Sequence record: OL739525.1
Direction: 5' to 3' (one strand)
Origin: Escherichia phage dw-ec
DNA: 64,000 bases
Shown: positions 34,926 to 52,187 of the stretch, piece after piece
How positions within the stretch are numbered: the stretch's first letter is position 1
Layout of the letters: each line of letters begins with the position of its first letter
Position numbers and translations under genes: made by a program
Notes under the pieces: model-generated
Seen by the model: the letters and a program-made list of their open reading frames with translations, nothing else
What the model was told of the DNA's origin: nothing
Databases searched by the model: none

Positions 34926-37523
34926 TCAATGACAGGATGCCCAAGAATTCCCCACATCATATCCAGCAGTAAGCTGAACATTAAGATTGTAAAATTCTCC
35001 AGCCTTAGTAACAGCTAAAGCAGCAAGTTCACCTGCCCGACTATAAGCTGTAAACCATCCACCTTTGGGAGATTCATGAATGTTAGCCCAAATTTGCCCT
35101 GTCTCTTTTTCCTTATTATGCTTCCATTCTTCGACTTTAGCAAGGCATTCTTTATCAATTTTCTTTTGTTCTTCAGGATCGTCTACTTTCTTCCAACCTA
35201 ATGATTCAGGTGAAAACCATTTGAATTCTACAAGGTTACGAGAAACTTCAAGCTGGGCTTCATCGTGATATGCAATCATTTGTTGCACGAAGTCTTTATT
35301 CTTCCAGTCATCTTTAAAGAAGTCAACACTTAGCCCTTCTTCTTCGATCATGTCATCATAAATAACCATTGCACGTTTAGCACAGATAACCCCACCGCTT
35401 TGGAACAGAGAGTTAAGAATCGCGTGAGCAGAACGAGTAGGAACCTTACGACCGTCAATACCCAAAACATATTGTTTACCAGTCTTAACCCAGAAATCAT
35501 TTAAACGTTCTTTAAGACGCGCCAATGGGAATGCAGCTTCCCAGAAAGCATCGAACACCAATTGACCTGTAAACTTGTCGCTACCAATTGTTTTAGCAAC
35601 CTTGTCGGCTTGTGCACCATAGGTAATACCATACTTAACAGATTTAGCAGGACTACGTTCAAATTTACGTCCAATAGTTTCAGTGATACGTTTTGCCATC
35701 ATTGTGTGAACATCGTTAGGTTTCTCTAACAACAGAGCGTTACAATATTCGTGTGGCTCTGGCTCGTACCGCCAACAGTAGTGTGATTCAATTTTTGCTT
35801 CCAAAGAGTCGAAGTCGTAGCCAATCTGGAAGTACTTAGGAACCTCTACACCAAACAAGTTACGCATCTCCCATCCAAACAAAGATGTGACACGAGGAAT
35901 ATTAGCTACAGACCTATGCTTCATACGAGAGGTTGCAGCATCACATGTAGCTGCTGGGGTAGGAATACGACCATCCGCCCTTACTGCGGCTAAGAAACCT
36001 TTATCATATTCTTGATCTTCCTCATCTTCTTCCCAATCAGCACCACCGCCTAAAATAGAGTTCCTACGATGCTTATACGTTAAGTATTCTACAATCTGTG
36101 TAGCATAAGGGAATTTCTCACCTAAAGCTTGCAGGTTAGGACAGATTTCTTTTTCCTGACCTTTGGTAAAACATGGGTTAGTCAATACTTTAAGACCGCG
36201 ACCCTTACCTTTTGCTATACGCTCTTGAATCTTCCTCTCCAAGGTTTCCGGTGTGCACTCCAGATGATCACAACGATCCTGACAAAAATTAGAAGACAGA
36301 GTTTGCTCAACGTAAGCTCGAATACCTTTCTGAAGTTCTTCCTCGCTCTTTTTAATCTTGGTGCCAGATTTAAGAGTCAAGTCTTTATCTTTATATTCAG
36401 ACGGTACCCAACCTAATCCTACAAGCCAGTTTTTAATATGGGTAGTATCGTTCAATGTTGCAGGGATATTAGGATCACACAAAGGCTCATCTGCTGCAAC
36501 TGGCAGTTTCCATTCTTTCCCCAACATCACTAACCACCAATCTCCATCCCTCTCTTCCAAATGACCATCATGTTTCTTAGCAAAATTGATCATATGGTTA
36601 GTTGGCTCTAAGTTCTTTTTAATTTGCAACTTAGGTGGAATAAAAGCCTTAAGATAACCTTTTGTTGCTGGTTTAGGTGGCAAAATAGGCTCAACGAGTA
36701 AACGAAGACGCTCCATTTCTGCATCCAAAAAAGCAAGGTTCTCTTCTGCTTGTTTCATGTTAAAAGCAAACCCACGGTGTTCCTGGCGTGTAATAATGTC
36801 TGCTACACGTTGTTCAAGTTCAAATGGACCTTCCCATTTATCATAATCACCCCATTCTTCCATAAGGTAATTATATACGCTCGTATTGGCTTTGTTGTCA
36901 TAGATACAGTAATAAAGCATATCCGCAGCAAAAGTCTTAAATCGATCTTCTTCTGGAATCTCTTTACGGAAATCTATTTTTACATCACCCCCTGCCTTTC
37001 GAGAAAGTGCTGCCAAGCTATGTCCTGATTTGCCCTCAATCTTTCGATCTGGGTTTAACACTTTACTCAAAATCAAGGAGTCAATAAGTTTTACCTTATT
37101 TTTGCCCCACGTATTATATTTAACACTGTAATCTAAACCATAAAACAGTTTTGTAGCCAACCAGTCATAGTTGATACCGTTGTGAGCCACAGCTATTTCA
37201 ACCAGATATTCAGGCTTATCTTTAAAATAACCTTCATGATTAATAAAGTCTGGGAAATCTTTTAGTTGAAAATGTGTGTAATCTTGCGCCACATACTCTT
37301 TAAGAACATATGTGTATTTACCATCTGACTCTTCATAAGAACGCCCATCAAAGATGTATTTAGGGCCATCGTGGAAAGCTACTATTTCTCCTGTTTCATG
37401 GTTCTCTAAGACAATACAGTGCATTTGAAATGTGTCTTTGAGACGATAAGGACTAGCTAAATAATCGATAGTGTCATTATTCAACAATCCGTTTGCTTCA
37501 ATATCCCATGTAAACTTACTCAC
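34926..37523 (-). CDS. DNA polymerase, family A, with 3'-5' exonuclease domain
   Basis: 865 aa. N-terminal WDIEANGL (exonuclease motif) and KYGITYGAQ (motif B-like). Unsegmented. Confidence 0.85.
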   Translation of the reverse strand: MSKFTWDIEANGLLNNDTIDYLASPYRLKDTFQMHCIVLENHETGEIVAFHDGPKYIFDGRSYEESDGKYTYVLKEYVAQDYTHFQLKDFPDFINHEGYFKDKPEYLVEIAVAHNGINYDWLATKLFYGLDYSVKYNTWGKNKVKLIDSLILSKVLNPDRKIEGKSGHSLAALSRKAGGDVKIDFRKEIPEEDRFKTFAADMLYYCIYDNKANTSVYNYLMEEWGDYDKWEGPFELEQRVADIITRQEHRGFAFNMKQAEENLAFLDAEMERLRLLVEPILPPKPATKGYLKAFIPPKLQIKKNLEPTNHMINFAKKHDGHLEERDGDWWLVMLGKEWKLPVAADEPLCDPNIPATLNDTTHIKNWLVGLGWVPSEYKDKDLTLKSGTKIKKSEEELQKGIRAYVEQTLSSNFCQDRCDHLECTPETLERKIQERIAKGKGRGLKVLTNPCFTKGQEKEICPNLQALGEKFPYATQIVEYLTYKHRRNSILGGGADWEEDEEDQEYDKGFLAAVRADGRIPTPAATCDAATSRMKHRSVANIPRVTSLFGWEMRNLFGVEVPKYFQIGYDFDSLEAKIESHYCWRYEPEPHEYCNALLLEKPNDVHTMMAKRITETIGRKFERSPAKSVKYGITYGAQADKVAKTIGSDKFTGQLVFDAFWEAAFPLARLKERLNDFWVKTGKQYVLGIDGRKVPTRSAHAILNSLFQSGGVICAKRAMVIYDDMIEEEGLSVDFFKDDWKNKDFVQQMIAYHDEAQLEVSRNLVEFKWFSPESLGWKKVDDPEEQKKIDKECLAKVEEWKHNKEKETGQIWANIHESPKGGWFTAYSRAGELAALAVTKAGEFYNLNVQLTAGYDVGNSWASCH

Positions 37524-38317
37524 TATTCCTCCTTTCTAATGTTCTCCAGAACCCACTGAAGTTCTTTTAAACTTAAACTTCTTACTCCCGCAGTTTTACT
37601 AGCTTCAGCTTTAAGTAACGGGTAAGCCTCAATGATACGCGTTTTAAGATCAGAAGTCAAGGCTTTTAAAAAATAGGTAGATGCTTCAGATAAAGAATCT
37701 TCTTCTGATAACACTTTACCTGCACTTGCTCCCGCTCTCCTAACGGCTATATCGTAGTCTTTACTGTTACCTAATACGAATAGTCGATTCTCTCCTAAAA
37801 CAACGGGAGAACGCTTCTCGTTGCGTTTAATCCATATCTGGAATACACAAGGAACATCCCAAGGTTCTCCATGAAGAATAAAAGATCCTTTTGGACATTC
37901 TTCTTCGTAAAAAAGATGCATGTGGGGATTTAGTTTGTGTGCAAAAAAGATTTTTTGAAATGTGCGAGGCAAGATAAAACAAATACCACCTTCGTTATCC
38001 AACATTTCAGCACAATGGTTAAAGAACTTAATGGCAAGACTGGCATTTTTTCCAAACGGAGGATTACCGACAAAAGCAGTTACACTACCAACAGACTCAA
38101 CAGATTGAGCTAAAAAATCTGCCTCAATACAATCTTCAAACTTAGGGTCAATATCAAAAGAAGTTATGTTTTTAAAACAAGAAGAGAAAGCTCCTTCTCC
38201 CGCAGATGGTTCTACGTAGTTAGCTTCCTCTCCAAAAATTTCTTTGATCTTATCACATAAGAACCCCGCATAAGCGGGGTTAGTGTAATATTGATCAAGT
38301 ATGTTCAACTTGCTCAA
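37523..38317 (-). CDS. DNA N6-adenine methyltransferase (NPPF type)
   Basis: 264 aa, TTG start after RBS AAGGAGG. Motif I-like VEPSAGEGAF and motif IV NPPFG. Confidence 0.65.
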   Translation of the reverse strand: MSKLNILDQYYTNPAYAGFLCDKIKEIFGEEANYVEPSAGEGAFSSCFKNITSFDIDPKFEDCIEADFLAQSVESVGSVTAFVGNPPFGKNASLAIKFFNHCAEMLDNEGGICFILPRTFQKIFFAHKLNPHMHLFYEEECPKGSFILHGEPWDVPCVFQIWIKRNEKRSPVVLGENRLFVLGNSKDYDIAVRRAGASAGKVLSEEDSLSEASTYFLKALTSDLKTRIIEAYPLLKAEASKTAGVRSLSLKELQWVLENIRKEE

Positions 38318-38825: not shown

Positions 38826-38852
38826 ATTTTTAATAAAAGGGCCGAAGCCCTT
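38826..38852 (-). terminator. rho-independent terminator overlapping primase-helicase stop
   Basis: AAGGGC-TTCG-GCCCTT (UUCG tetraloop) then UUAUUAAAAAU on the minus strand. Confidence 0.55.
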
Positions 38853-40629
38853 AATAGTTGCTATCCGTAGGCAAATTAGCAGGATTGTTGAAATACTGCT
38901 CTTTGTCATGCAGAGTTGCAGTTCTAATGTCATAGTAAAACTGCCCTGCCGGACCAGTTTCCGAGAACTCACGGTTTTTTAGGATAAAGCAATGAGTCGT
39001 ATTGCGTTCTACAGGGTCTTCAGCGGCTTTATCTCGTTCCAAAGCCAAGGTAATACCAGCACCTTTAGCCAAAAAACTACTACCCATTGCATCGTCCTCT
39101 GTTAAGTGTTCATTGCCACCATTAGCCGATTTCTTAACGTGTGAGATGACGATAATAGTTATAGCGTACTCTTTCATGATGCGCTTCAACCATGTTGCTA
39201 ACTCTTCCTGGGCTTGAACATCCATACCAGAAAGCAAATCAGAATAAGGGTCGATAACAAGAATTGTTACTCCAAAATAGATGATCATCTCCAAAACTTT
39301 TTCTTTGATAGACTCCACATCTGCTCCACGATCATCACACACATAAAAACGTGGTGATCCATCTTCTCTTTCGTAAAAATCTAGGATTTTTTCTTTATTC
39401 TCTTCCAAGATTTGAAATTTCTCTTCCGGTGTTTTCCTGTGTAGAGGAATATGCAGGAACGAGGACAACAGGTTACGAGAATATTTCTTATAAGTTGCTT
39501 CCAAGGACAGAATACCCAAGGTATGTTCTGGGTGAGCAACAATAATATGTTTGGTGATCTCGTTCACCATCAAAGTTTTACCGATACTGGTCTTTGCCAG
39601 GATCACTGTAATCTCTTCCTCTACTAAACCACCACCCAGCATATTTGCAGCAACACGCATAAAAGGAGGCAAGGTAATCATCTTGGATTCCAAGCATTCT
39701 AATGCAGCTTCATACAAGACATTAGAAGCATAAACACCTGCTGGGGTGTATAGACGAGCACTCCAAAAAGCTTTTACGAAATCTTTTGCACGACCTTCTT
39801 CCAGATACTGATTGGCATCCTTAAGATCCATCTGCATACGGTAGACTTTGTTACGGGGCAGCACCTTAACAATATTTTCAAATGCCTCATTACCTGCTTT
39901 GTCATTATCCATGCAAACAATAATCTTCTTAAATTTTTCAAAGAAAGGATATTGTGCCTGAACTTGTTTATACATACTGGTTTCACCAGTTGTGCCACTA
40001 ACTACTGCTGGAAGTTCATATTTGTTGTCCAAGTTTTCAGACAACATTTGATAAGCTGCCAGAGCATCGTGTTCACCACCTGTAATTACCACAGTATGAG
40101 AACGGTCTGCAAAACGAATTTGTCCAAAAAGATCTACATCTTTACCTACTTGACCAATAGGTTTACTGAAATCTTTAGGATGGATACGACGCTTAAAACC
40201 AACCAATTCTTTACCGATGGTAGTTGGATATAAACAACTTTCTACTACCATCTGATCCCCTTCCTGACGGTATTCATAACGAACACCATAGAAAGATGAA
40301 ACTTTTTCTTTAATGCCTCGATAACCACGTGGGTTGGTTGATGTTTCTTGAACAATTTTACGATGAATCTGTTTATTAAATTCCGAACCCACAATCTCCT
40401 CCTCTTCTTCTAAAACTTCACCATTTTCTCGTAACCATTCTACGCTAGGAATAGTGTATTCACACGCAAAGCACTTAGCACCTTTATGCTCTCCATTAGA
40501 ATCTAATCCATAAACCATCAGGTTATTACGAGAGCGATCCTTGCCATTTTTCATGCAGCGCGGACAACCTGTATGCCCTTCCTTGCTAAGATCAACATCA
40601 AATCCATATTTAGTTATAATGTGCGACAC
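38851..40629 (-). CDS. DNA primase/helicase (T7 gp4-like)
   Basis: 592 aa. N-terminal Cys4 zinc ribbon (CPRCMKNG...CFACEY) and a C-terminal DnaB-like Walker A (ILAKTSIGKT). Confidence 0.8.
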   Translation of the reverse strand: MSHIITKYGFDVDLSKEGHTGCPRCMKNGKDRSRNNLMVYGLDSNGEHKGAKCFACEYTIPSVEWLRENGEVLEEEEEIVGSEFNKQIHRKIVQETSTNPRGYRGIKEKVSSFYGVRYEYRQEGDQMVVESCLYPTTIGKELVGFKRRIHPKDFSKPIGQVGKDVDLFGQIRFADRSHTVVITGGEHDALAAYQMLSENLDNKYELPAVVSGTTGETSMYKQVQAQYPFFEKFKKIIVCMDNDKAGNEAFENIVKVLPRNKVYRMQMDLKDANQYLEEGRAKDFVKAFWSARLYTPAGVYASNVLYEAALECLESKMITLPPFMRVAANMLGGGLVEEEITVILAKTSIGKTLMVNEITKHIIVAHPEHTLGILSLEATYKKYSRNLLSSFLHIPLHRKTPEEKFQILEENKEKILDFYEREDGSPRFYVCDDRGADVESIKEKVLEMIIYFGVTILVIDPYSDLLSGMDVQAQEELATWLKRIMKEYAITIIVISHVKKSANGGNEHLTEDDAMGSSFLAKGAGITLALERDKAAEDPVERNTTHCFILKNREFSETGPAGQFYYDIRTATLHDKEQYFNNPANLPTDSNY

Positions 40630-40641
40630 TTTGTTCTCCTG

Positions 40642-40920
40642 TTAAAATGGTTCGTTAGTCTCCATCATATATTCTGCTTCTAGTTCTTCCATGTGCTTTC
40701 TAAATTGGAAAGCAATTTCTGCTACAGTTACATTTAAATCTTTTTCAAAAACTTCTGTAGAGCCTTCGTAAAAACGAATACCGTCAATTAAAAGCCCTCC
40801 GTGGTAATCCCAATCACTTTCACGAGAAAGCGGGTTAGGCTCTTCATAATAGTAATCCACCTCCACGACTAAAGCTTTCCCGTTACGAGTGGTGTATTCA
40901 AAATCAAAAGTGTTAATCAT
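40642..40920 (-). CDS. hypothetical protein
   Basis: 92 aa acidic protein. Confidence 0.4.
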   Translation of the reverse strand: MINTFDFEYTTRNGKALVVEVDYYYEEPNPLSRESDWDYHGGLLIDGIRFYEGSTEVFEKDLNVTVAEIAFQFRKHMEELEAEYMMETNEPF

Positions 40921-41864
40921 TATAGCTCCTCAAATAAAAGTCTACGACGCTCATTCAACACATCAATGTGATAATGAGTCCTGACATACTTAGCTAATGC
41001 TAATCCTTTCTCCATGCAAACATCGGGAGCACTTAATAAGTATTCCGTAATATCTTTCCACTCGGAAGGTGTTTCAGCAAAGAATAACAAATCTTTAAAC
41101 TCTTGCGTATGATAATTCTCACGAGGAGAACAGATCAAAGGTAAACCCTTAGCACCTGCCTCAAGAATTTTAAGATTGCTTTTTGCATTATTAAACACGT
41201 TATCAATCAATGGCGCAAGACTGATTTGATGACCATCGTAAGATTCCATGTAGTTGGCATATGGTCTTACACCTTCATAAACACAAGTTGGTGCTACATT
41301 TTCTCTGATTACAGACCATTCACGACTACTTAAAACTTCAGAATCCCTACGAAAACCACATATTGTAAGATCTTTACCAAAATCGGGCAAGATAGCCAAA
41401 TCTTGTTTATGTGTTTCACTTCCAGCCCAGACTAATGGAGTTTTGGAGTAGCGATCACGGGTCAACACAAATTGACCTTCATCGTAAGGAAGTCCATTAG
41501 GGATTATGTGCACATTATCATTGTATTGTGAAAGTTCAACTTGCAAAGCAGGTGTCGTAGTTGTGACAAGATCGCTGTGCTCTAAAAACCATTTTAAATG
41601 TTCACGAATACCTGATTCAAAAATACCTTCTAACATGTGTCCTTTTGGAATAACTAAAGAGTCATCCAAATCCATAACCATTTTAAAGCCTAGGTTTTTA
41701 AGGGCTAAAAAGCCCTGTTTACCTTTTGTTGGCACCCCGTTAAAAACGAAAACGTTGTGTTTAGGTTGTGAAGAGAACTGCCTTGAGTAAGGCAGCACTA
41801 CCCTATGGAAATCGCAGACACTATAATTGATTCCGTTACGATTGTCAAGAATTATTTGTCCCAT
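40920..41864 (-). CDS. glycosyltransferase, GT-B fold (putative)
   Basis: 314 aa, paralogous to the next gene. Motif SNLKILEAGAKGLPLICS resembles the GT4-type nucleotide-sugar binding motif. Confidence 0.5.
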   Translation of the reverse strand: MGQIILDNRNGINYSVCDFHRVVLPYSRQFSSQPKHNVFVFNGVPTKGKQGFLALKNLGFKMVMDLDDSLVIPKGHMLEGIFESGIREHLKWFLEHSDLVTTTTPALQVELSQYNDNVHIIPNGLPYDEGQFVLTRDRYSKTPLVWAGSETHKQDLAILPDFGKDLTICGFRRDSEVLSSREWSVIRENVAPTCVYEGVRPYANYMESYDGHQISLAPLIDNVFNNAKSNLKILEAGAKGLPLICSPRENYHTQEFKDLLFFAETPSEWKDITEYLLSAPDVCMEKGLALAKYVRTHYHIDVLNERRRLLFEEL

Positions 41865-41871
41865 ACTTCAC

Positions 41872-42819
41872 CTACAAACTTTCAATAACCTGGCGTCGCA
41901 ACTCGTTTGCATCTGCCAGATTATAATGTGTTCGAACATGTTCCGCCAAGAACAAACCACGATCTTCCCGATAGTTTGGATTGCGAAGAAGCTTAACAAT
42001 TTCGTAATGCCATTCTGCTTTATTCTCTGCGTAAGCAACAGCGCGAGCATCTACAGGGTTAAAATAAGGTAATACCTTAGAACAAACAATTGGAATACCT
42101 TTTGCTCCAGCTTCCAGGATTTTGAGATTACTTTTACAATTATTAAAATCATTATCTACCAAAGGAGCTATAGCAATAGCATGACTTTCGTAAACACTCA
42201 TGTAATTATCTAAATCTTTTACAGCGGCTTTATATTTGGCATTTGGTAAATTTCTGCGAATCTTAATCCACTCTTGTCCCGTGATGCTTTGTGATGCTTC
42301 ATATCCCGCAATAGTAAGAAGTTCATCATCGAAAGTATTAGAGACTAGTCGTAAATCTGGTTCGTGACTAGCACCGCCAGCCCATACAACAGGGGTACCG
42401 GATGAACGATCATTTGACAAAGTGAATTGTCCACTATCAAAAGGAAGTGCATTTCGGATCACAACAACATTCCTATTTAAGTGACGGATCTTATATGCCA
42501 AATATTCTGTAGTCACAATAACCACATCAGCAAGCTTAACCATAGCTACAATAGCATGAGTGTTTGACTCGTATAGACTTGCTAAATAATGTTCTGGATT
42601 AAGTTGGTAGAAATCATCTAAATCTACAACAATCTTAACACCTTGACGTTTCAAAGATAAAACGTATTCTGCACCTTTAGAGTGGATACGGTTAAACACA
42701 ACAACATCTTTCTTAGGTTGAAGATTATGGTTGTTAAATGGCATAACAATACGATGATAGTCACAACCGCTGTGAGGTTTTGCATCAATTTTTAGTTTAG
42801 ACCATTTTTTATTTGACAT
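41872..42819 (-). CDS. glycosyltransferase, GT-B fold (putative; paralog of 40920-41864)
   Basis: 315 aa. Shares CD(F/Y)HR(V/I)V(L/M)P...SNLKILEAGAKG(L/I)P with the neighbouring gene. Confidence 0.5.
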   Translation of the reverse strand: MSNKKWSKLKIDAKPHSGCDYHRIVMPFNNHNLQPKKDVVVFNRIHSKGAEYVLSLKRQGVKIVVDLDDFYQLNPEHYLASLYESNTHAIVAMVKLADVVIVTTEYLAYKIRHLNRNVVVIRNALPFDSGQFTLSNDRSSGTPVVWAGGASHEPDLRLVSNTFDDELLTIAGYEASQSITGQEWIKIRRNLPNAKYKAAVKDLDNYMSVYESHAIAIAPLVDNDFNNCKSNLKILEAGAKGIPIVCSKVLPYFNPVDARAVAYAENKAEWHYEIVKLLRNPNYREDRGLFLAEHVRTHYNLADANELRRQVIESL

Positions 42820-43492
42820 GTGCTAGTGCCTCCTCATAGGAAATTCGGATTTTCCCATTTTTAATATCCTCTAAAGATGCTTTATATTCTTCCCAGTTAA
42901 TCCCGATAGCAGCTTCTTTCTCTTCTTTTGTCAGATTAGCAAAAGGCATAGGATTGTTTCCAAAAACATCGTCTGGGTGGATATAAGCCATGATACGAAG
43001 TGGACAAGGTGTTGCCTGAATACCATGATTCAAACCAGCAGCTTGTAAACGGTGTCCCCATTCAGCATCTTCAAAACCATAACCATGAGTGTAAGGACGG
43101 AAATAACCCATCTTCTCAACAACGGCACGAGAATACATTGCAAATTGACACATTGCAAGTTCCCAGAGAATAACTTCTCCTTTGCTTCCAACAACTTTAT
43201 CTTTGAAGTACTCCGGCATACCAAAGAAATCCCATCCTCCAGAGACAGCTTGATCTACAAAATATGTTTCCCATCCCTCCATGACTGGGTAGCAATCGTC
43301 GTCAAAAATAAACCAATAATCATAACCTTCTTCATAAAACTGGTGCATAAGTTCATTCCTGGCATAAGCTACACCTTTACGGTCTGGATCGTTGAATACT
43401 CGAAAATCTGCACGTGGATCTGTTACAAGGTAGTCTTTAAGTGGACGGACACCTACAGTGATAACACCCACTCCGATTTTAATATTTTCCAT
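42809..43492 (-). CDS. glycosyltransferase, GT-A fold (putative)
   Basis: 227 aa with DxD-type FIFDDDCYP and HGYGFEDAEWG motifs. Confidence 0.5.
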   Translation of the reverse strand: MENIKIGVGVITVGVRPLKDYLVTDPRADFRVFNDPDRKGVAYARNELMHQFYEEGYDYWFIFDDDCYPVMEGWETYFVDQAVSGGWDFFGMPEYFKDKVVGSKGEVILWELAMCQFAMYSRAVVEKMGYFRPYTHGYGFEDAEWGHRLQAAGLNHGIQATPCPLRIMAYIHPDDVFGNNPMPFANLTKEEKEAAIGINWEEYKASLEDIKNGKIRISYEEALAHVK

Positions 43493-43500
43493 TTTCTCTC

Positions 43501-44064
43501 CTAAATAGTTTTACTGTGATCATGACAGTGTAATAAATGATGTATAGACCGTTGAGGATTTGTTTGACCTAATCTGTAAATGTGAAACAGATACATTCCC
43601 CGCATCAATCCTAACCTCTTCCCTTTTTCATGTAAAGTGCGAGAGAAAATTAAGTCGAATTGGATAGATTTTTCTTCGAAAGGAATTTCATTCCACAAGG
43701 ATTTTCTAAAAAGCAAAAAGAAACCTGCTAGAGGTGTTCCGAAAGGAACTTCTTCAACACTCACTTTATGATATTCTCTTGCAATCTTAGCATATTCTAT
43801 ATGGTTTAGAATATCTGGATCATCGTTAATTTGGTTAGAGAAAAGCTGATAACCACTGCCTAACCTGTTACAAGTTGCACCTATTACATCAAAAGGTGGG
43901 TTTGACATAACAAGCTCTTCAAGCATAGATGGTTGATCAGGTAGGAGGAACATTGTATCGGTATCTCTTAAACACACCCAACTATCATCTGGAAGAACGG
44001 CAATGGCTTCATTGATAGCCTTGCCGATATTTCCTGTCAGATAGGGAGTAATATAATAAATCAT
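43501..44064 (-). CDS. possible glycosyltransferase (GT-A-like)
   Basis: 187 aa. N-terminal YYITPY...LRDTDTMF could be a Rossmann-type strand plus DxD; weak. Confidence 0.3.
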   Translation of the reverse strand: MIYYITPYLTGNIGKAINEAIAVLPDDSWVCLRDTDTMFLLPDQPSMLEELVMSNPPFDVIGATCNRLGSGYQLFSNQINDDPDILNHIEYAKIAREYHKVSVEEVPFGTPLAGFFLLFRKSLWNEIPFEEKSIQFDLIFSRTLHEKGKRLGLMRGMYLFHIYRLGQTNPQRSIHHLLHCHDHSKTI

Positions 44065-44080
44065 TCTCCCCTCCGTTATA

Positions 44081-44272
44081 TTAACTGTCGGCTACAATCC
44101 CGCGTTTAATCATTTCCTGTTGGATTTGGATGACACGATCTCGTGCTTCCATGTATTCTTTAAAAGATTCTTGAAGATGGTCACGAGCTACGTCTCGTAG
44201 CTTAATCAGTTTGTCGTTTGTCACTTCTTGAAGAGAGATTTCGCCAGTTTCATTGGTCCCAAGCGTTTTCAT
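44081..44272 (-). CDS. hypothetical small helical protein
   Basis: 63 aa ORF. Confidence 0.4.
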   Translation of the reverse strand: MKTLGTNETGEISLQEVTNDKLIKLRDVARDHLQESFKEYMEARDRVIQIQQEMIKRGIVADS

Positions 44273-44480
44273 TTACAACCTCCTTAATAGCTACTGCACA
44301 GTTCTTACAAATACATTGACCTTTGTTCTTAGAAATTTCAATGTAAGGTTCATTTTCGTTTTCTCCGCGTCGTGAGTCGTATATTACCGTATTGAAGCAG
44401 ACAACGCAAATGTTTTTAATAACGACATATTTTTGCACTTTCTGTTTAGTGCGAAAATTGACTTCAATGACTTCTCCCAT
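44250..44480 (-). CDS. small zinc-ribbon protein
   Basis: Track ORF 44250-44528. The ATG at 44480 (RBS GGAGA) overlaps the upstream stop as TGATG; protein has CVVC...CICKNC. Confidence 0.4.
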   Translation of the reverse strand: MGEVIEVNFRTKQKVQKYVVIKNICVVCFNTVIYDSRRGENENEPYIEISKNKGQCICKNCAVAIKEVVNENAWDQ

Positions 44481-44764
44481 CAGTGAATCTCCCCTAAAAT
44501 GTTGTTTTGAGACATTACTGCGGAGCATTCTACAGCATCATGAGTCCTTGCAAAACGCTCCCACAACACAGCATCTACTTTAAGAACCATACAAGGATAA
44601 ATACTGTCGTTGATCATGTCAATGCTATATTTATCTACATCCTTTTCACCTTCCATAAACAAAGTAGCATATGCTTCTAAATGCTTACGGGTGTAGTATA
44701 CATCCTCTTCAGTAAGACCGACAACCAGGTAACTTGCTACAACAACAGTATTATCTTCTTGCAT
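44480..44764 (-). CDS. hypothetical protein
   Basis: Track ORF 44480-44827. The internal ATG at 44764 has RBS AAGGGGAG and avoids overlap with the lysin gene. Confidence 0.4.
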   Translation of the reverse strand: MQEDNTVVVASYLVVGLTEEDVYYTRKHLEAYATLFMEGEKDVDKYSIDMINDSIYPCMVLKVDAVLWERFARTHDAVECSAVMSQNNILGEIH

Positions 44765-44765
44765 T

Positions 44766-45287
44766 TTAACTCCCCTTTGGTAGATAGAAACCATGCACTT
44801 TATCTCGATAAACAAGACGCATATCACGTTCCCAGTGTGTCCTTATATTCCGTTTCTTGAAGTATAGAGCACCTTTAGTAACATCTAAAACAGACCGCAA
44901 TTCAGGAAAATGTTTCTCTAAATAAAGTAAACGCTCCGCTATTGCTTTTGCTTCCTGCCACTTATCTTTCTCTGTTACGTTAAAAGTTTTCGCATATGAG
45001 AATTGCCCTTTCTGGAACAAGACTCCTCTGACCGTGTTAGGGAAGTAGGTATCATTTCTTCTGTTGATTACCACATTCCCAACGGCATTCATTCCTTTTT
45101 TACCCAGACCTCGACCTTCTGCGTAAATTGCACAAGCTAATAGAATTTTATCATTATATTGCTTTGTACATTTGTGAACTACTTTAGCGGTTTTTACGTT
45201 TGCAGCTTCGGCTTTCGCCACAACAGGTGTAAATGTAAAAGCAGTTAAGGATAGTAACGCAACTGTTACAAAGTTTTTTATCAGCAA
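44766..45287 (-). CDS. SleB-type cell-wall hydrolase with N-terminal signal sequence (putative endolysin)
   Basis: 173 aa, TTG start after RBS AGGAGG. N-terminal hydrophobic signal (FVTVALLSLTAFTFTPVVAKA). Motif AIYAEGRG...GMNAVGNVVINRRND..YFPNTVRGVLFQKGQFS is typical of the SleB hydrolase family. Confidence 0.6.
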   Translation of the reverse strand: MLIKNFVTVALLSLTAFTFTPVVAKAEAANVKTAKVVHKCTKQYNDKILLACAIYAEGRGLGKKGMNAVGNVVINRRNDTYFPNTVRGVLFQKGQFSYAKTFNVTEKDKWQEAKAIAERLLYLEKHFPELRSVLDVTKGALYFKKRNIRTHWERDMRLVYRDKVHGFYLPKGS

Positions 45288-45319
45288 ATTTTGCCTCCTT
45301 TTTAAGTTAACGAATTTCT

Positions 45320-45348
45320 AGTATAACACGATAGAGGCTTTATTGCAA
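45320..45348 (-). promoter_or_regulatory. sigma70-like promoter (TTGCAA-N17-TATACT)
   Basis: On the minus strand, -35 TTGCAA at 45348-45343 and -10 TATACT at 45325-45320, upstream of the lysin gene. Confidence 0.5.
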
Positions 45349-45368
45349 GAGGGGGATTTCTCCCCCTC
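45349..45368 (-). other. GC-rich hairpin after the TerD-like gene
   Basis: GAGGGGGA-TTTC-TCCCCCTC abutting the -35 element; no U-run. Confidence 0.35.
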
Positions 45369-45386
45369 AAAATCATTTGTTAATTA

Positions 45387-45989
45387 TTATGGACATTCAT
45401 ACCATTCTTTTTTACCACCGAAGGCCATCACCACATCGCAAATATCCAGACCGGCTTTACCTACACCATATGCTTTCAGCTTCCATTCCCCATCTTCACG
45501 AACCAAGGAAGCCACGTGGCAGATTGTGTTACCAGCTACTTCAGGAGCCAGGAAGTCAAAATCCAGAATTTCCACATTACGTTCGGAGTCAAAGATTTTA
45601 AGCATACCTTCAGAAGCATGACCAAAACGTTTCAGACCTGTATCATCATCAATGGTCAGAACAAAGGCAATCTCTTGTGCATCAGGAGAGATTTTAGCCA
45701 GAGTAATATCAATCTGCTCCATGCTGCCAGTCCCATCACGAACATCGTCACCAGCGAAGGTAGAACGTTCAGGATCAAACTTGTTAGCGTAGCAAACCAG
45801 ATGACGTGCAGACAGCATTTCAGGATTGCCAGCGGCATTATGACGACAAACCAGTGCACTTACATCCAGATCCAGTTTAGAATCAGATTTCCAAGAGAAT
45901 TCCAGGCGCAGTTCTTTCAGAGCCGGAGCAACTTTCTTCAGGGAAATTTTTTCGCTAGAGCCTTTTTTCAGGGAAATTTTATCAGTCAT
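45387..45989 (-). CDS. TerD-family protein
   Basis: 200 aa. Aligns by eye along its length to E. coli TerD recalled from memory: N-terminal ISLKKG..ISLKK, DLDVSALV, GDDVRDGTG, FVLTIDD, GEWKLKAYGVG. Confidence 0.7.
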   Translation of the reverse strand: MTDKISLKKGSSEKISLKKVAPALKELRLEFSWKSDSKLDLDVSALVCRHNAAGNPEMLSARHLVCYANKFDPERSTFAGDDVRDGTGSMEQIDITLAKISPDAQEIAFVLTIDDDTGLKRFGHASEGMLKIFDSERNVEILDFDFLAPEVAGNTICHVASLVREDGEWKLKAYGVGKAGLDICDVVMAFGGKKEWYECP

Positions 45990-46004
45990 CTTTTGTCTCC
46001 TCTA

Positions 46005-46274
46005 TTATTTAAGTGTAATACCAGTTACAGTCAATTCTACTTCCAAAAGCTTAGATGTGTTTTGGATTGATACTAATTGTGCATGATGGTTTAGTTCTAC
46101 AGCGGAATAATCATTCTCCCCATCGTCTACTTTTAAATAAACAATGATTTCACTAAGGTCTAAACCATTTTCGTCAAATGCATTTTCATAGACGAAAGTA
46201 TCTCCTACATCCAAATCTTTAATGGTAAGGCATCGTTTATTTACTTTTTGCTCATCAATTTCGAAGTTTAACAC
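46005..46274 (-). CDS. hypothetical protein (paralog of 47296-47574)
   Basis: 89 aa. Shares DLDVGDTFVYENAFDENGLD and a C-terminal TVTGITLK-type motif with the gene downstream of the vWA gene. Confidence 0.45.
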   Translation of the reverse strand: MLNFEIDEQKVNKRCLTIKDLDVGDTFVYENAFDENGLDLSEIIVYLKVDDGENDYSAVELNHHAQLVSIQNTSKLLEVELTVTGITLK

Positions 46275-46503
46275 TTCTTCCTCCTAATGTTATCTCCGGT
46301 TTGTATATACGAAGAATTATAGCATTTTCATTTTCTTTGTCAACCCATTCTTCATAATCGGGCCATACATGAATCTCTACTCTACTTACAATATCTTCCA
46401 TTCGCACAGTCCCAATGAAATACTCTTTGAGACTGCGCATAATGAAAGCTTCTCTCTCGCGCCAATAATTTTCTACGACTTGAGAGGCAAGCTCGTCGAT
46501 CAT
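46255..46503 (-). CDS. hypothetical protein
   Basis: 82 aa ORF coupled to its neighbours. Confidence 0.4.
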   Translation of the reverse strand: MIDELASQVVENYWREREAFIMRSLKEYFIGTVRMEDIVSRVEIHVWPDYEEWVDKENENAIILRIYKPEITLGGRSVKLRN

Positions 46504-47294
46504 TTTTTAGCACCTACTTTAACAACCCACTCTCCGAACTCTTCAGATAAGAGTTTGTCATAAAGCTCTGAATCTGTCAAGTCTAAATCTTTAATGCCAA
46601 TAAAACCAACATTATCATAAGCATTTGCCAGTTCTTTCAGGAAGCCAAACTTCTCATTACCAACGCCAACCATGAACCAATAAATAGGTTTATTCTTATT
46701 CTCTTCAATAAGACGACGAACAGCACTAGGATCACCATTCTCACCATCCGTCTGGAAGAATACAACACCAGGGGTAACGTCAGCACCTGGTTCAGATACA
46801 GCTACAACTTTTTCACGCTCTACAGACACTGTTTCAGTTTTACCAAGCAGACGATTAAAGAAGCCTTTCTTTGGAGCCTCCTCTTGTACCACTTGTTTAG
46901 TGGTAATATATTTGGTAACAGTGCCAAAATACTCATCGTAGATATCTGCCATTACAGGGGCGTAATTTGTTCCACCTCCGATACGAACATTACGCATACA
47001 TTTACCAACATAGTCATCGTAAACGTCTGCTGTTGCTGGAGTAAGCTCTTGGGAACTCGTATTGAAGGCCCACATATCAATTTGTTGATTATCGTCGAAC
47101 AGCATACCAAAAGGAAGCAGTTTACCTACAAAATCACTCACTACCCCACTAGAATATAGACCATGCATACTACCAGAAATATCTAGAGCACATGCTACAC
47201 GAAGAACAATCTTACCTTCATTCAGGTTCTTATTCTTTTTCAGAGAGAAAGCAAGGTTTTCTTGACGTTTTTTCAGGCTGATTTTCTCGGACAT
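46500..47294 (-). CDS. von Willebrand factor A domain protein (TerY-like)
   Basis: 264 aa with MIDAS-type motif DISGSM. N-terminus MSEKISLKK resembles the TerD-like N-terminus. Confidence 0.55.
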   Translation of the reverse strand: MSEKISLKKRQENLAFSLKKNKNLNEGKIVLRVACALDISGSMHGLYSSGVVSDFVGKLLPFGMLFDDNQQIDMWAFNTSSQELTPATADVYDDYVGKCMRNVRIGGGTNYAPVMADIYDEYFGTVTKYITTKQVVQEEAPKKGFFNRLLGKTETVSVEREKVVAVSEPGADVTPGVVFFQTDGENGDPSAVRRLIEENKNKPIYWFMVGVGNEKFGFLKELANAYDNVGFIGIKDLDLTDSELYDKLLSEEFGEWVVKVGAKK

Positions 47295-47295
47295 A

Positions 47296-47574
47296 TTATT
47301 TCTCCTTCTTAAGTGTAATATTGGTAACTTCTAAATCTACTTCCACCATATTTGTATCTGGTGGGATGCAATGAGTATAGCCTCGTTGTGCTAGTGATCC
47401 ATTAATACAAATCGCACTGTTTGTGGAATTTTTAATGAACACCAAGTTACGGTAGGTATCCAACCCTGCGTCTTCATAGGCATCATAATACATGAATGTG
47501 GCCCCTACATCAAGATCTTCGAAAGCAATAGGTAAATCCTGACTTTTTTCTTCTTGAATATTGAATCTAAACAC
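47296..47574 (-). CDS. hypothetical protein (paralog of 46005-46274)
   Basis: Track ORF 47296-47640. A GTG at 47574 after RBS GAGGAGG avoids overlap with the upstream gene. Shares DLDVGATFMYYDAYEDAGLD...VTNITLKK. Confidence 0.4.
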   Translation of the reverse strand: MFRFNIQEEKSQDLPIAFEDLDVGATFMYYDAYEDAGLDTYRNLVFIKNSTNSAICINGSLAQRGYTHCIPPDTNMVEVDLEVTNITLKKEK

Positions 47575-48130
47575 GCATACCTCCTCTACCAATTTTGAAG
47601 CCCAAATCGTAAGCTTCCTTAGTGATCTTTTGTAACTCACTTATAGGAAGTGTTACAAGAGGATCATCTTCTTCAATTTCCATCTTGTCATCTTCTGTTT
47701 CAATGAGAGTATTATGCACTTTGTGATAAGGGTTGTCAACACGTTTAAACTTATTCTTTTCTGTGCTGAAAAAACAATCTGGATCTTCTTCACCATCACC
47801 CCAACCTTGGTTAGGATCTCCGTCAGATTGTTCTGTAGGGATTTCACCTGTAAAGTACTCTTCCAGCACCATAGCGATACCGTCCCTTGGATTTGAGGAA
47901 TGCATCAAATCACAAACCTTACTCCAATCCATAGCCCATTCAAATCGTTCACGAACACCATTTTCATCCTCCTTTCCAGAGAAAACACAACCATAACTAT
48001 CATAGTTGCCATACATCTCTTCAATAACAACACCGTCCTTCAAAAGAAAGAGGTAGCAAGGTGATCCGTCGAAAGAAGTAGAAAGGGCAGCTTTGCCCGA
48101 TTCTTTGCACAAAAAGCTAAAACAACCCAT
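47567..48130 (-). CDS. hypothetical acidic protein
   Basis: 187 aa ORF. Confidence 0.45.
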   Translation of the reverse strand: MGCFSFLCKESGKAALSTSFDGSPCYLFLLKDGVVIEEMYGNYDSYGCVFSGKEDENGVRERFEWAMDWSKVCDLMHSSNPRDGIAMVLEEYFTGEIPTEQSDGDPNQGWGDGEEDPDCFFSTEKNKFKRVDNPYHKVHNTLIETEDDKMEIEEDDPLVTLPISELQKITKEAYDLGFKIGRGGMRV

Positions 48131-48528
48131 TACAAACCCTCCTTCAGATTATCAAGAGCTACAGTGGTTTCACAAAATTCTCCATAAGCTTTATGATGTT
48201 CCAGAAAAGCTTCGGGTCCACCCCAGTCATTATCTTGTGTATTCCAGCCATCTATAAAAGCATCTTCAATGATTGTGATCAGTTCCTGTCGAGTCAACGT
48301 AATGGTATCAGGTTTCTGCGTAGTTTCCACACGGAACCCTGGTTCTTCATAAAAACCTTTAGTTATAATGGATTCTAACTCTTCTGCATCACAGAGGAAG
48401 TAGCCACAAAGATAACACCAACCGTCATCATCTTTCATTACTTCATAAACTTCACCACTTGCCAAATTAGTGAAAAGAGTAGGGTCTGTTACTGTAAGTT
48501 TTAAAAGAATACCTGTTGGATTATACAT
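48130..48528 (-). CDS. hypothetical protein
   Basis: 132 aa ORF with overlapping start and stop. Confidence 0.45.
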   Translation of the reverse strand: MYNPTGILLKLTVTDPTLFTNLASGEVYEVMKDDDGWCYLCGYFLCDAEELESIITKGFYEEPGFRVETTQKPDTITLTRQELITIIEDAFIDGWNTQDNDWGGPEAFLEHHKAYGEFCETTVALDNLKEGL

Positions 48529-48693
48529 CTTCTTCCTCCTCTAAAATATGGAACCCGTAATTACAATAATCCTGAAAGGTTTCGTGTGCAAGATCTTCTA
48601 TATCCTCTTGAGACATATCATCTTCAATTTCGATATCCACAACCTCATTGCATCCACACCAAGCAGTTTCAATATTCACTCGTAGTATTTTCA

Positions 48694-48891
48694 TTACTCC
48701 TCCTCCTCATTGAAGTCAATATCTGCAAGGAGTTCGAATTTACGGAAGTTACGACAACCTTCATAAATATAACAATCACGACAAACTGCTAGAACACTTG
48801 GGGGATATATACCTCCCATCGGCGCGAATCGTTTTTCGTCATCATAACGGACACCAATGTCCTCATCAATTATATAGATACGGATTCTCAT
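48694..48891 (-). CDS. hypothetical small protein
   Basis: 65 aa ORF. Confidence 0.35.
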   Translation of the reverse strand: MRIRIYIIDEDIGVRYDDEKRFAPMGGIYPPSVLAVCRDCYIYEGCRNFRKFELLADIDFNEEEE

Positions 48892-50000
48892 TTACCAAGC
48901 CCTCGTTTCACAGCAGCTACCATCCCGTCTTCCAGAGATTGAACTTCATTAATATAATCAACACGAGCAGCACGGGCTTCCGTATTGATGCGGTTAGTTT
49001 CTTCCAACATCTTAACCAAGTTTTCCTGATCGTGACGCAGAGTTTCAATATCCAACACTTGACGGTTAGCCAGTGCTGCTGCTTCGATCTGATTCTGTGT
49101 GGCAAGATCGCTACCCAGTTTAATTGCCAGGTTAAATTCATCAAGAACGTTATTCTGCGTCTCTGCTGCTTTCATTTGACGTAAGCTCTCGATATACATT
49201 GAGAAGTTAGCAGAGTAAGCAGGAATAACATTATTTACTATGTTACGCGCAGATCGCATTAAGCTTGCAGAAACTTTTTGCATACCTTGTACACGCGGTC
49301 CCATTTGGACACACAGTAGGCGCAATGCTTTTAAATCTGCAATACGAATCTCCAGAAGATCCAAAGTATCTCGGATCACTTGTCGCTGTTCTACTGCATC
49401 TTCTGGAAGAGCAGCCAAAGCTTGTTCTTCTTTTTCATAGGTTGCTGTTAGAAGCTGCATATCTCGGTTCAAACTTGCAGCATATTGTCCAATAGCTTGA
49501 TGTAGCTTTTCAAGATATACCAAGGAATCTTCTTCTTTGCGAATATCCATTTGAAGGTTCTTTACCAACTCTTCAATACGGTTATTAACATTATCAAACT
49601 CCCCGAACAGGTCTTCTTTCATACCCATAACTTTTTTAATGAGTTTAGTAATACCCTTGCTTTGTTTAATAGAGTTTGGATCAAGTTGTTTTGCCTGTTT
49701 AATCAAAGCTGTAAGTCGTTCACTCATCTGATCGCCTTGATTACTACGTTGATGTTTTAACACCTCGGCATTCAAGGAACGCAAGGTTGTTCCTGCCTCT
49801 GCCCCAATCTCTTCAATCTCTTGTCGGGTCATAGAAGGCAAAACTGGAACTTCTTGCGGTGCCGCTGGTGCATAAACAGGACTGGCATCTAACACGCTTG
49901 GAGCGAATACAGATTTACTTGCATCTGTTGTTGCAGCGAATACACTCATTTCAGACTTCTTCTGACCACCAGTAGCTGCTTTTAAAAATGGACTTGTCAT
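48888..50000 (-). CDS. TelA-like (toxic anion resistance family) coiled-coil protein, tentative
   Basis: 370 aa, largely helical, of the size expected for TelA/KlaB-type proteins and flanked by TerD, vWA and TerC genes. No diagnostic motif verified. Confidence 0.4.
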   Translation of the reverse strand: MTSPFLKAATGGQKKSEMSVFAATTDASKSVFAPSVLDASPVYAPAAPQEVPVLPSMTRQEIEEIGAEAGTTLRSLNAEVLKHQRSNQGDQMSERLTALIKQAKQLDPNSIKQSKGITKLIKKVMGMKEDLFGEFDNVNNRIEELVKNLQMDIRKEEDSLVYLEKLHQAIGQYAASLNRDMQLLTATYEKEEQALAALPEDAVEQRQVIRDTLDLLEIRIADLKALRLLCVQMGPRVQGMQKVSASLMRSARNIVNNVIPAYSANFSMYIESLRQMKAAETQNNVLDEFNLAIKLGSDLATQNQIEAAALANRQVLDIETLRHDQENLVKMLEETNRINTEARAARVDYINEVQSLEDGMVAAVKRGLGK

Positions 50001-50587
50001 TCTTCATTCTCCTCTTCTGCATCTCTTATATATGGTGAAACACCGTACTCTTTAGCTACTTTAACCCAATCATCCCATTTATACAACCATAATTTTCCTT
50101 CAGTTCCTTCTTTATCTGATTTCAACCACATGTTAGGTTGCTTGCCTGGGTACATGCGATTAGGTTTACGATTATAACCTCTAACACATCTTGTCGCAAA
50201 CCTATCTACCAGAACAAGAACATATTTATACTCGTGGTTCAACGGCTCTTTGGAAGTGGCTTTAGGATTAGCCCCTAACTCTGCTGCCAGTTTTTGCCAA
50301 TGAGCACCGTGCCTACTAAACTTACCCATACAACCATCAATAGCGTGAGCAATTTCGTGCTTCATTGTATCCACGATCATATCTCTTGTAGAGTTCTTAT
50401 GCAAGTGCCAATTTACAACAACAATTTTATCTCGGTAGTTGCACCAACCGAAAGAGTTATTCACTTTGTTTCTAACACAAGCTTTATATCCTGCTTCACG
50501 TAACATGTTGTAGTAAACAGGAAAATCTTCTTTTATTTCCTGCATCACTTCCCACCACAAGAGTTGCAAGTCTCTCTCGGTATGCAT
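49997..50587 (-). CDS. SprT-like zinc metallopeptidase (putative)
   Basis: 196 aa with HExxH in TMKHEIAHAIDG...HGAHW, arranged as in SprT-family proteins. Confidence 0.5.
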   Translation of the reverse strand: MHTERDLQLLWWEVMQEIKEDFPVYYNMLREAGYKACVRNKVNNSFGWCNYRDKIVVVNWHLHKNSTRDMIVDTMKHEIAHAIDGCMGKFSRHGAHWQKLAAELGANPKATSKEPLNHEYKYVLVLVDRFATRCVRGYNRKPNRMYPGKQPNMWLKSDKEGTEGKLWLYKWDDWVKVAKEYGVSPYIRDAEEENEE

Positions 50588-50589
50588 AC

Positions 50590-51183
50590 TTACACCTTAA
50601 AAGCGAAATGCGTGGTCGTGGCTTCAAAATCAGGGCCAGATAAACTTGCACTGAAATCTGAAATATTTGTAATTAAAAAGCTTTTATGCATACCTAACAC
50701 AGCCACGCTTTCAATATCTTCTACTAACATTTCAATCATGTTAGAAACATGGCTGAACGTATAGTTTTGTTTTTTGATGGTGTAGAAAGAAAGACTCTCA
50801 CCTGCTGTATAAGATACTTCTTCAAAATCTTTAATCGTATACTGTGTCCCATCAGTAAAGAAAATGGTAGCTTTATTAGTAGCACGTTTCTTGTTTTTTG
50901 GTCCTTTTTTACGTTTACTGCGAGTAGGCAAACCGTTTGGAAATACCGTAGCTACAAATTCTTCAGGAGAAACCTCCTTACCGAAATCATAACCGTAAGA
51001 AACAGCGTCTATAAACTCGTCGTCTTCATTTTTAAAATAATGAAAATAGGGCCAATTTGAGAGATTATCGAGCATCTTATGCTCATCCACAGCAGAGAAC
51101 GTATCCCTCAAAGCACGTGTGATTTGCAAAGCATTAGGCAAACTTTTAACACCTGTAATGGAAGTACGGATAGAAATTGTCAT
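50590..51183 (-). CDS. hypothetical protein
   Basis: 197 aa ORF. Confidence 0.45.
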   Translation of the reverse strand: MTISIRTSITGVKSLPNALQITRALRDTFSAVDEHKMLDNLSNWPYFHYFKNEDDEFIDAVSYGYDFGKEVSPEEFVATVFPNGLPTRSKRKKGPKNKKRATNKATIFFTDGTQYTIKDFEEVSYTAGESLSFYTIKKQNYTFSHVSNMIEMLVEDIESVAVLGMHKSFLITNISDFSASLSGPDFEATTTHFAFKV

Positions 51184-51197
51184 TGTTTTTCTCCTTA

Positions 51198-51635: not shown

Positions 51636-51822
51636 ATTTGCTTTCCTCGTTTTGGCTATTAATACATCTGTGTTTGAAATCTCCAGAGAAGCAATAAAGT
51701 TGCTCTCCATCTCGGTATAAACTCACTTTACTGCCGTTGATTACGCTTGTCAATACAAAAATTACAACAAACAACCCTATTGCAAAACAGATATTTTCAA
51801 ACACAACCAACAAGTATTTCAT
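51577..51822 (-). CDS. small membrane protein
   Basis: 81 aa with an N-terminal hydrophobic helix; its 3' end overlaps the lipoprotein gene start. Confidence 0.35.
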   Translation of the reverse strand: MKYLLVVFENICFAIGLFVVIFVLTSVINGSKVSLYRDGEQLYCFSGDFKHRCINSQNEESKYEKTSPDFNWLYLFNSLRG

Positions 51823-52169: not shown

Positions 52170-52187
52170 AAGTCTCTCCTATAAAAT

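Follow-up and report, generated by a model that had tools for sequence, protein, structure and literature searches.

A glycosyltransferase operon in Escherichia phage dw-ec appears to be an expanded form of a mobile module and may act on virion proteins

What does a run of four adjacent phage glycosyltransferases (GTs) build, and on which acceptor? The question is raised by a minus-strand gene cluster at 40920-44064 in a 64,000-nucleotide stretch of Escherichia phage dw-ec (sequence record OL739525.1; the whole stretch is referred to as the window, and coordinates are those of the window unless another genome is named). We name the genes GT4, GT3, GT2, and GT1, in their order along the operon. 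Known beforehand were the genes themselves, their annotation (all four are labelled "glycosyltransferase" in RefSeq and in Pharokka-style annotations of Phapecoctavirus genomes), and the idea, already in print, that such phages rhamnosylate their DNA (Olsen et al., 2020). What is new here is that the DNA idea is poorly supported, that a mobile three-gene module is tied to packaging and head genes across several bacterial phyla, and that the GT-B core of this module is linked by gene context to immunoglobulin (Ig)-like surface proteins. The best reading of the operon, to which we assign a probability of about 0.45, is that its products are soluble enzymes that together build a glycan on the virion proteins of the phage. 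An initial annotation of the window had offered this as an alternative to its lead, a T-even-like multi-sugar hypermodification of DNA; the alternative is the one that best fits the comparative data, in which the module lies beside packaging and head genes in other phages.

All four proteins are glycosyltransferases, far beyond chance. Comparison with PHROGs places GT1 and GT2 in phrog_7162 (E = 2.5e-145 and 1.1e-148, respectively), GT3 in phrog_2456, and GT4 in phrog_14179, with E values across the set of 1e-78 to 1e-148, and structure-based classification gives GT-A folds for GT3 and GT4. This profile and structure classification, which the initial annotation had proposed as a check, bears out its description of two GT-B-like paralogues sharing a motif, a GT-A protein with DDD and YGFEDAEWG motifs, and a further DTD-containing candidate. 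The paralogues are GT2 (41872-42819, 315 residues) and its diverged copy GT1 (40920-41864, 314 residues), which are 41% identical and have KSNLKILEAGAKG in common. Both appear to be of GT-B type, a fold assignment made from profile matches only: GT1 barely passes the Pfam model Glyco_trans_1_2 (25.2 bits against a gathering cut-off of 25), and the matches of GT2 to Glyco_trans_1_4 and Glyco_trans_1_2 lie just under the cut-offs (22.8 and 20.4 bits), while PF13524 or PF13692 is present in many GT2 homologues. Residues invariant in the GT2 family include C19, H22, R23, D66, D68, D69, and H152, together with the motif KSNLKxLEAG.

The other two proteins, GT3 (42809-43492, 227 residues) and GT4 (43501-44064, 187 residues), are predicted to adopt GT-A folds with a DxD metal-binding motif, an assignment on which predicted structures and fold searches agree. 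In GT3 the DDD triplet (residues 64-66) lies within FIFDDDCYP and the YGFEDAEWG motif is also present in the translation; in GT4 the DxD motif is D34-T-D36 within CLRDTDTMF. The DxD aspartates are invariant in both families. Pfam yields only short sub-threshold matches around the DxD motif for GT3 and no match for GT4, whose family nevertheless comprises 976 clusters (50% identity) at E ≤ 1e-3 and has no Pfam model; its members either stand alone, at about 180 residues, or form the C-terminal half of a two-domain protein about 400 residues long. The fold searches returned only generic GT2-like neighbours for GT3 and GT4 and gave no hint of an acceptor. No NCBIfam model matches any of the four proteins, and a sequence search of PDB chains with all four gave nothing useful. 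None of the four has a membrane segment: their maximal Kyte-Doolittle means over 19 residues are 0.76-1.65, compared with 2.56 for a TerC control.

The four genes form one operon within a long leftward transcription arm. From GT4, the first gene, through GT3, GT2, and GT1 to an open reading frame (ORF) of 92 residues (40642-40920, minus strand), the successive gene-to-gene spacings are 8, -11, 7, and -1 nucleotides; GT3 and GT2 thus overlap by 11 nucleotides, and the start of the ORF overlaps the stop of GT1 by 1 nucleotide (ATGA). A Shine-Dalgarno sequence precedes each gene, and no terminator-like site was found on the minus strand over 40300-45500. The 92-residue ORF, for which a Pfam scan gave no match, is possibly a member of the operon, and an ORF of about 89 residues occupies the same place, between the second GT-B gene and the primase-helicase gene, in Bas60 and in two metagenomic relatives. 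Bas60 (PaulScherrer, genus Justusliebigvirus) has the same order as the window, GT4-GT3-GT-B-GT-B-89-residue ORF-primase, with 66%-76% protein identity, and the tandem GT-B pair is retained in the phi92-like phages and in more distant relatives. Closer to the window, Escherichia phage ETEC-TG is 99.2% identical to the window region, and phAPEC8, anhysbys, and about 60 other records are about 99% identical to it, all of them Phapecoctavirus of the subfamily Stephanstirmvirinae. Position 1 of the window corresponds to about position 76241 of ETEC-TG; as the closest complete genome, ETEC-TG stands in for the remainder of dw-ec, and the genome-wide tests reported here cover the window together with the rest of ETEC-TG.

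Outside this lineage, temperate prophages of Serratia, Enterobacter, and Paraburkholderia also have the order GT4-GT3-GT-B, at 34%-51% identity; prophage orthologues taken in window order are 41%-44% (GT4), 36%-43% (GT3), and 41%-51% (the GT-B of the GT2 family) identical to the window proteins. The Serratia M24T3 prophage carries holin and endolysin genes followed, further along, by GT4, GT3, GT-B, HNH, TerS, TerL, and capsid genes, and the Enterobacter huaxiensis prophage has the same order with a gene for a dTDP-glucose-4,6-dehydratase-like enzyme inserted. In the Paraburkholderia J67 prophage the module follows the capsid and portal genes, within the structural operon. Prophages of three Pseudomonas species run from a 143-residue Ig-like protein with a Big_2 domain through GT3 and GT-B to a phage metallopeptidase, TerS, and TerL. 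In Streptomyces phage KimJongPhill, genes for an epimerase, a methyltransferase, and a distant GT-B relative immediately precede TerL and the portal gene. Cellulophaga phage phi18:1 encodes a GT4 domain fused to a TOD1/MUCI70-like GT domain, beside a Methyltransf_24 enzyme, with a head-morphogenesis gene on one side and those for the prohead protease and capsid on the other.

A scan of IMG/VR gave at least 572 matches, from which 79 loci were kept; counts are given over 75 of these and are not independent, since many of the loci are from related phages of about 30-35 kb. A GT3-like gene stands alongside the GT-B gene in 42/75, a gene of the TerL family lies about 4 kb downstream in 36/75, and a NeuD/PglB/VioB-like acyltransferase gene is adjacent in 14. 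Chitinophaga prophages share this layout, with TerL about 4 kb downstream or an SPP1-type portal gene as the neighbour. Such sugar-tailoring genes, either the acyltransferase or a 4,6-dehydratase-like enzyme, are often found beside GT-B in the Chitinophaga and viral loci. GT2 is closer than GT1 to every prophage homologue, and to every homologue from the Burkholderia/Trinickia operon described below (41%-51% identity), and so is the copy nearest to homologues from outside this phage subfamily. Judged by gene order and sequence identity, the window operon appears to be an expanded form, with GT-B duplicated, of a mobile GT4-GT3-GT-B module, and elsewhere this module is commonly found just upstream of, or inside, the terminase and head genes.

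Two gene neighbourhoods connect the GT-B protein to Ig-like proteins. In the Pseudomonas prophages the 143-residue Big_2 protein, rich in Thr, Ala, and Ser, is encoded immediately upstream of GT3/GT-B (at 8871-9302 in one locus) and is a candidate acceptor or decoration protein; Big_2 domains of this type are known from structural proteins of cultured phages, tail proteins among them. The second neighbourhood is a conserved chromosomal operon of Burkholderia dolosa, Trinickia symbiotica, and Trinickia sp. (at about 5500-10900 of the loci), which encodes an adhesin, a protein of about 560 residues, and a GT-B that is 41%-45% identical to GT2. The adhesin is an inverse autotransporter of the intimin/invasin type, with IAT_beta, Big_1, and Invasin_D3 domains, and the operon is a candidate adhesin-glycosylation system in a non-phage setting. 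Cytoplasmic glycosylation of adhesins is exemplified by AIDA-I/Aah, TibA/TibC, and HMW1/HMW1C, and an operon that pairs a GT-B with an intimin/invasin-type adhesin has the arrangement typical of adhesin-specific glycosyltransferases. The likeness is limited in that the link to the adhesin is one of gene context only, the GT-B belongs to a fold family other than the heptosyltransferases and GT41, and the phage version comes with two additional GT-A enzymes. Neither the Pseudomonas Big_2 protein nor the Burkholderia protein (571 residues) has a homologue in this phage genome. The window does encode an 890-residue fibre protein with RCC1-like repeats and a Big_2 domain (29584-32256), and a tail protein (15633-17786) that combines a Calx-beta domain with the N-terminal and TIM-barrel domains of a non-contractile-tail-sheath protein.

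We propose that GT4 and GT3 (GT-A) and GT2 and GT1 (GT-B) may together constitute a soluble, cytoplasmic glycan-assembly line whose acceptor would be a protein made late, namely surface-exposed virion proteins, to which a short O-linked glycan would be added during assembly. The GT-B would recognize the acceptor; it is the best candidate for this step, being the only universal component of the module and recurring beside proteins with Ig-like domains (the Big_2 protein and the Big_1-rich invasin). GT3, GT4, and the second GT-B might then extend or branch the glycan, which could shield the particle or tune its adhesion. Acceptor, order of action, sugars, and biological role are inferred.

One donor would be dTDP-L-rhamnose, made by the phage RmlC and RmlD enzymes (RmlBACD in some relatives). 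The rml genes lie outside the 64-kb window, and their products score above the NCBIfam equivalog cut-offs: RmlC and RmlD of ETEC-TG at 225 bits (cut-off 156) and 239 bits (cut-off 224), and RmlB and RmlA of phage tuntematon at 431 bits (cut-off 365) and 464 bits (cut-off 361). RmlC is present in 129 phage records and GT4 in 131 (at ≥60% identity), and these are essentially the same records, from Phapecoctavirus, Justusliebigvirus, and Klebsiella phages. This co-occurrence of rmlC/rmlD with the GT cluster suggests that dTDP-L-rhamnose is a likely donor for at least one of the four enzymes. The pathway differs within the genus: tuntematon has the full set rmlB-rmlA-rmlC-rmlD (121282-124560 of its genome), as does phAPEC8 according to annotation notes in the tuntematon record, and ETEC-TG has only rmlC-rmlD (44224-45626 of its genome). 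The short form would presumably draw on host dTDP-4-keto-6-deoxyglucose, which we expect to be supplied by the enterobacterial common antigen (ECA)/RffGH or O-antigen pathway.

The nearest precedent for a phage system of this kind comes from mycobacteriophages. Capsid and tail proteins are reported to be glycosylated in Che8, Corndog, and Myrna, with Che8 gp110 and Corndog gp38 essential (Freeman, 2023, in the account given in PMC12363180). Like the window operon, the mycobacteriophage genes form clusters of several soluble phage GTs. In Che8 three GT genes (gp108-110) are followed at once by gp111 and an HNH gene, at the right end of the genome, and in the Serratia and Enterobacter prophages the GT4-GT3-GT-B module likewise precedes an HNH gene; methyltransferases and epimerases also accompany modules related to that of the window. 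GT3 shares distant homology with the GT-A domains of Myrna gp234 (E = 1.4e-10) and Che8 gp108 (E = 0.002; both pairwise), and the only sequenced-phage proteins related to it beyond its own family are several hundred GTs from mycobacteriophages. In contrast, phrog_7162 (GT-B) and phrog_14179 (GT4) are not mycobacteriophage families, the hosts here are Gram-negative, and the window operon lies in the replication arm. What the two systems have in common is thus position and architecture, plus a single distant GT-A homology, without shared family membership.

Several observations weigh against a virion-protein target. We know of no glycosylated virion protein in any phage of Gram-negative bacteria, and there is reportedly little evidence of virion glycosylation outside the actinobacteriophages. 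The operon of the window lies in the leftward replication/nucleotide-metabolism arm and not beside the terminase, a place that gives no information on timing. None of the four GTs has detectable similarity to the essential Che8 gp110 (best BLASTP E = 0.43), and the similarity of GT3 to the mycobacteriophage enzymes, confined to a generic GT-A domain, is only 23%-28%. Capsid proteins of unrelated families (HK97-type, Major_capside PF09950, and others) accompany the module, an association that is odd for an enzyme tied to one structural-protein acceptor, and the lysis-terminase junction at which the module is found is also a classic site of morons, or accessory cargo genes, so that position alone is no proof of a virion role. 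Because mycobacteriophage glycans sit on C-termini, we looked for Ser/Thr-rich C-terminal tails on the capsid, sheath, and tube proteins in the window, and none were found. One study saw no glycoprotein staining in ten phages, whose taxonomy is not given, and literature searches turned up no report of virion glycosylation or of DNA analysis for Stephanstirmvirinae. The timing-blind position of the operon, the unrelated capsid types, the moron-prone junction, and a glycoprotein that is itself putative are what keep our estimate below even odds. We advance more tentatively the wider claim that the module would be the first system shown to glycosylate virion proteins in phages whose hosts are Gram-negative, placing a rhamnose-containing glycan on Ig-like or other surface proteins. 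It would be represented on at least 572 viral contigs and in prophages from both Proteobacteria and Bacteroidota, have more distant relatives among Streptomyces phages, and exist in Stephanstirmvirinae as a four-enzyme version with its own supply of dTDP-rhamnose.

The same position at the lysis-terminase junction of prophages, typical of morons, fits a second target, the bacterial envelope. The soluble GTs might add rhamnose-containing sugars to undecaprenyl-linked intermediates of lipopolysaccharide (LPS), O-antigen, ECA, or capsule, which we consider unlikely. For a lytic phage this would serve to block adsorption of progeny or superinfecting phages to infected cells and debris, and for the prophages it would amount to lysogenic conversion. 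Vequintavirinae and phages related to them have ECA, or a glycan akin to it, and the LPS core as receptors, so a change in these glycans would matter to the phage; dTDP-rhamnose is the classic donor in O-antigen synthesis; and the nearest structural matches of the GT-A proteins include the polysaccharide-building enzymes GlfT2, K4CP, TarP/TarS, and RmlT. However, seroconversion modules (GtrABC, Wzy/Iap) are membrane systems, usually located near the attachment site, whereas the four GTs contain no membrane-helix-like segment and no Gtr-like gene was found among the neighbours scanned. The module itself comes without a flippase, polymerase, acyltransferase, or bactoprenol-linked GT. Moreover, in Paraburkholderia J67 and Cellulophaga phi18:1 it is embedded in virion morphogenesis genes, and a strictly lytic phage of 150 kb would gain little from slow remodelling of the cell surface.

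Less probable again is a non-structural target, either a host or phage regulatory protein modified in the course of takeover or anti-defence, or a small molecule such as the nucleoside-like product proposed for the neighbouring Ter, phosphoribosyltransferase, and HAD genes. Rhamnosylation of a host protein has a precedent in EarP and EF-P. In Stephanstirmvirinae and in more distant relatives the four-gene operon always lies beside a Ter cluster (TerD, TerF-like, TelA, TerC, phosphoribosyltransferase, HAD) with a SleB-like hydrolase on one side and the primase-helicase gene on the other. The versions of the module in the prophages and in Chitinophaga, Streptomyces, and Cellulophaga have no Ter genes nearby, however, which makes the Ter link one of lineage-specific synteny, and no specific target can be named. 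A functional link between the GT operon and the Ter cluster, considered as a candidate, was set aside on account of these modules without Ter genes.

There remains the DNA itself, as the acceptor of rhamnose or of a multi-sugar chain placed at a modified base or at rare specific sites. Olsen et al. (2020) drew attention to rml genes among those for DNA metabolism and suggested that hydroxymethylated nucleotides are rhamnosylated. The operon of this lineage does stand between primase-helicase/DNA polymerase genes and nucleotide-metabolism genes, so that the placement of the cluster in a replication region by the initial annotation is accurate for these phages, although it is not a general property of the module. 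GT2 is basic (isoelectric point 8.5), and the genome encodes several DNA methyltransferases, a MazG-like pyrophosphohydrolase, and a divergent ThyX-like protein. GT3 has weak matches to the Pfam family TAGT (E = 1e-3) and to phrog_842, the T-even beta-glucosyl-HMC-alpha-glucosyltransferase (E = 7.6e-6). With the T-even system the operon also shares the general situation of phage-encoded GTs, including GT-B folds, among the replication genes of a large virulent coliphage.

Beyond this general situation the likeness to T-even phages fails. Neither a-gt nor b-gt of T4 has a homologue in the window or the rest of ETEC-TG (tblastn and phmmer, best E = 0.79), nor have the hydroxymethylase and dCTPase, gp42 and gp56 (tblastn E > 0.1, best E = 0.8 and 0.13; phmmer returned nothing). 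The initial annotation had seen no base hydroxymethylase in the window and had suggested a search of the rest of the genome; run on ETEC-TG, that search extends the absence to the complete genome of this closest relative. The likely donor here is dTDP-rhamnose, whereas that of T4 is UDP-glucose. The sole thymidylate-synthase-like gene is of ThyX type: the putative "thymidylate synthase" annotated at 51281-52279 of ETEC-TG is a divergent ThyX-like protein of 332 residues, encoded next to an NT5C-like nucleotidase, which scores 35 bits with Pfam Thy1 and 31.6 bits with TIGR02170 (cut-off 87.9).

As regards TAGT enzymes, which act on 5-hydroxymethylcytosine in phage DNA, GT3 resembles them in being a small GT-A enzyme with a DxD motif. 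The match of GT3 to TAGT (PF20691) reaches 19.5 bits against a gathering score of 27.5 and covers residues 32-68 (37 residues) only; the TAGT and phrog_842 matches are both confined to some 38 residues surrounding the DxD motif. A Pfam scan of 20 neighbouring proteins and the ETEC-TG annotation showed neither a TET/JBP dioxygenase nor an adjoining C5-methyltransferase. According to the BASEL paper, restriction-modification systems are exceptionally effective against the phi92-like phages Bas60-62, which have the same GT4-GT3-GT-B-GT-B cluster, "despite a putative dTDP glycosylation machinery"; its assay covered Justusliebigvirus Bas60-62 and no phapecoctavirus, so that transfer of the result to the window is indirect. 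A collection of avian pathogenic E. coli (APEC) phages that includes phapecoctaviruses has been fingerprinted with HincII, but results are not given per phage and were not used as evidence. The lack of T4-type machinery, the short GT3 matches, and the restriction sensitivity of Bas60-62 make global replacement of a base by a glycosylated form unlikely. The module occurs, furthermore, in small temperate prophages whose early regions, as far as visible, encode no more than a repressor, a primase, and an antiterminator and lack any nucleotide- or base-modifying enzyme, and the Burkholderia/Trinickia GT-B is found in an adhesin operon, a setting unrelated to DNA. The lead of the initial annotation is disfavoured by these comparisons, and a sugar on phage DNA, more plausible at rare or specific sites than as a global replacement, is the least likely of the targets considered.

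Phapecoctavirus and phi92-like phages are broad-host-range coliphages that are often isolated and are used in therapeutic cocktails. Were their particles to carry a rhamnose glycan, antibody recognition, clearance, adhesion to mucus and surfaces, and stability would be affected, as is reported for glycosylated mycobacteriophages. Virion glycosylation would then be a widespread trait of phages, moving on a mobile gene module, and not a peculiarity of actinobacteriophages, outside which it would exist as a variant using different enzyme families. With DNA as the target instead, the operon would represent a new chemistry of DNA modification, and with the envelope as the target a new way of controlling superinfection.

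The operon is flanked, as initially described, by genes for a primase-helicase (38851-40629) and for a small zinc-ribbon protein (44250-44528), the latter a 92-residue protein with a CxxC...CxCxxC pattern. A nearby adenine methyltransferase had also been noted; a 264-residue protein with an NPPF motif (VGNPPFGKN) is indeed encoded at 37523-38317, but it has no match in Pfam or NCBIfam, so that the label rests on the motif and the enzyme is putative. On the other side, between the GT operon and the Ter genes, lies a gene for a SleB-type cell-wall hydrolase (44766-45287; Pfam Hydrolase_2) with a hydrophobic N terminus, annotated as an endolysin in ETEC-TG, which indicates that the leftward arm is not purely one of early replication.

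The Ter-type cluster lies directly upstream of the GT operon (45387-56070) on the minus strand. It comprises genes for TerD (45387-45989), a von Willebrand factor A (vWA) TerF-like protein (46500-47294), TelA (48888-50000), a SprT-like protein (49997-50587), TerC (52212-53186), a ComF-like phosphoribosyltransferase (53987-54814; PF15610), and a HAD-like hydrolase (54807-55463), all on the minus strand. We take this set to resemble bacterial gene sets that combine a Ter stress response with a nucleoside-like metabolite. In a distant metagenomic relative, a gene upstream of the Ter cluster (at 1-493 of that locus) encodes a 437-residue enzyme like poly-ADP-ribose polymerase (PARP), with the domains WGR, PARP_reg, and PARP. 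Finally, the host labels of Campylobacter phages B15 and C3, Acinetobacter phage vB_AbaM_ABPW7, and Dompiswa phage TSP7_1 look doubtful, since in the genes compared here these records are 98%-100% identical to E. coli phapecoctaviruses or phi92-like phages.

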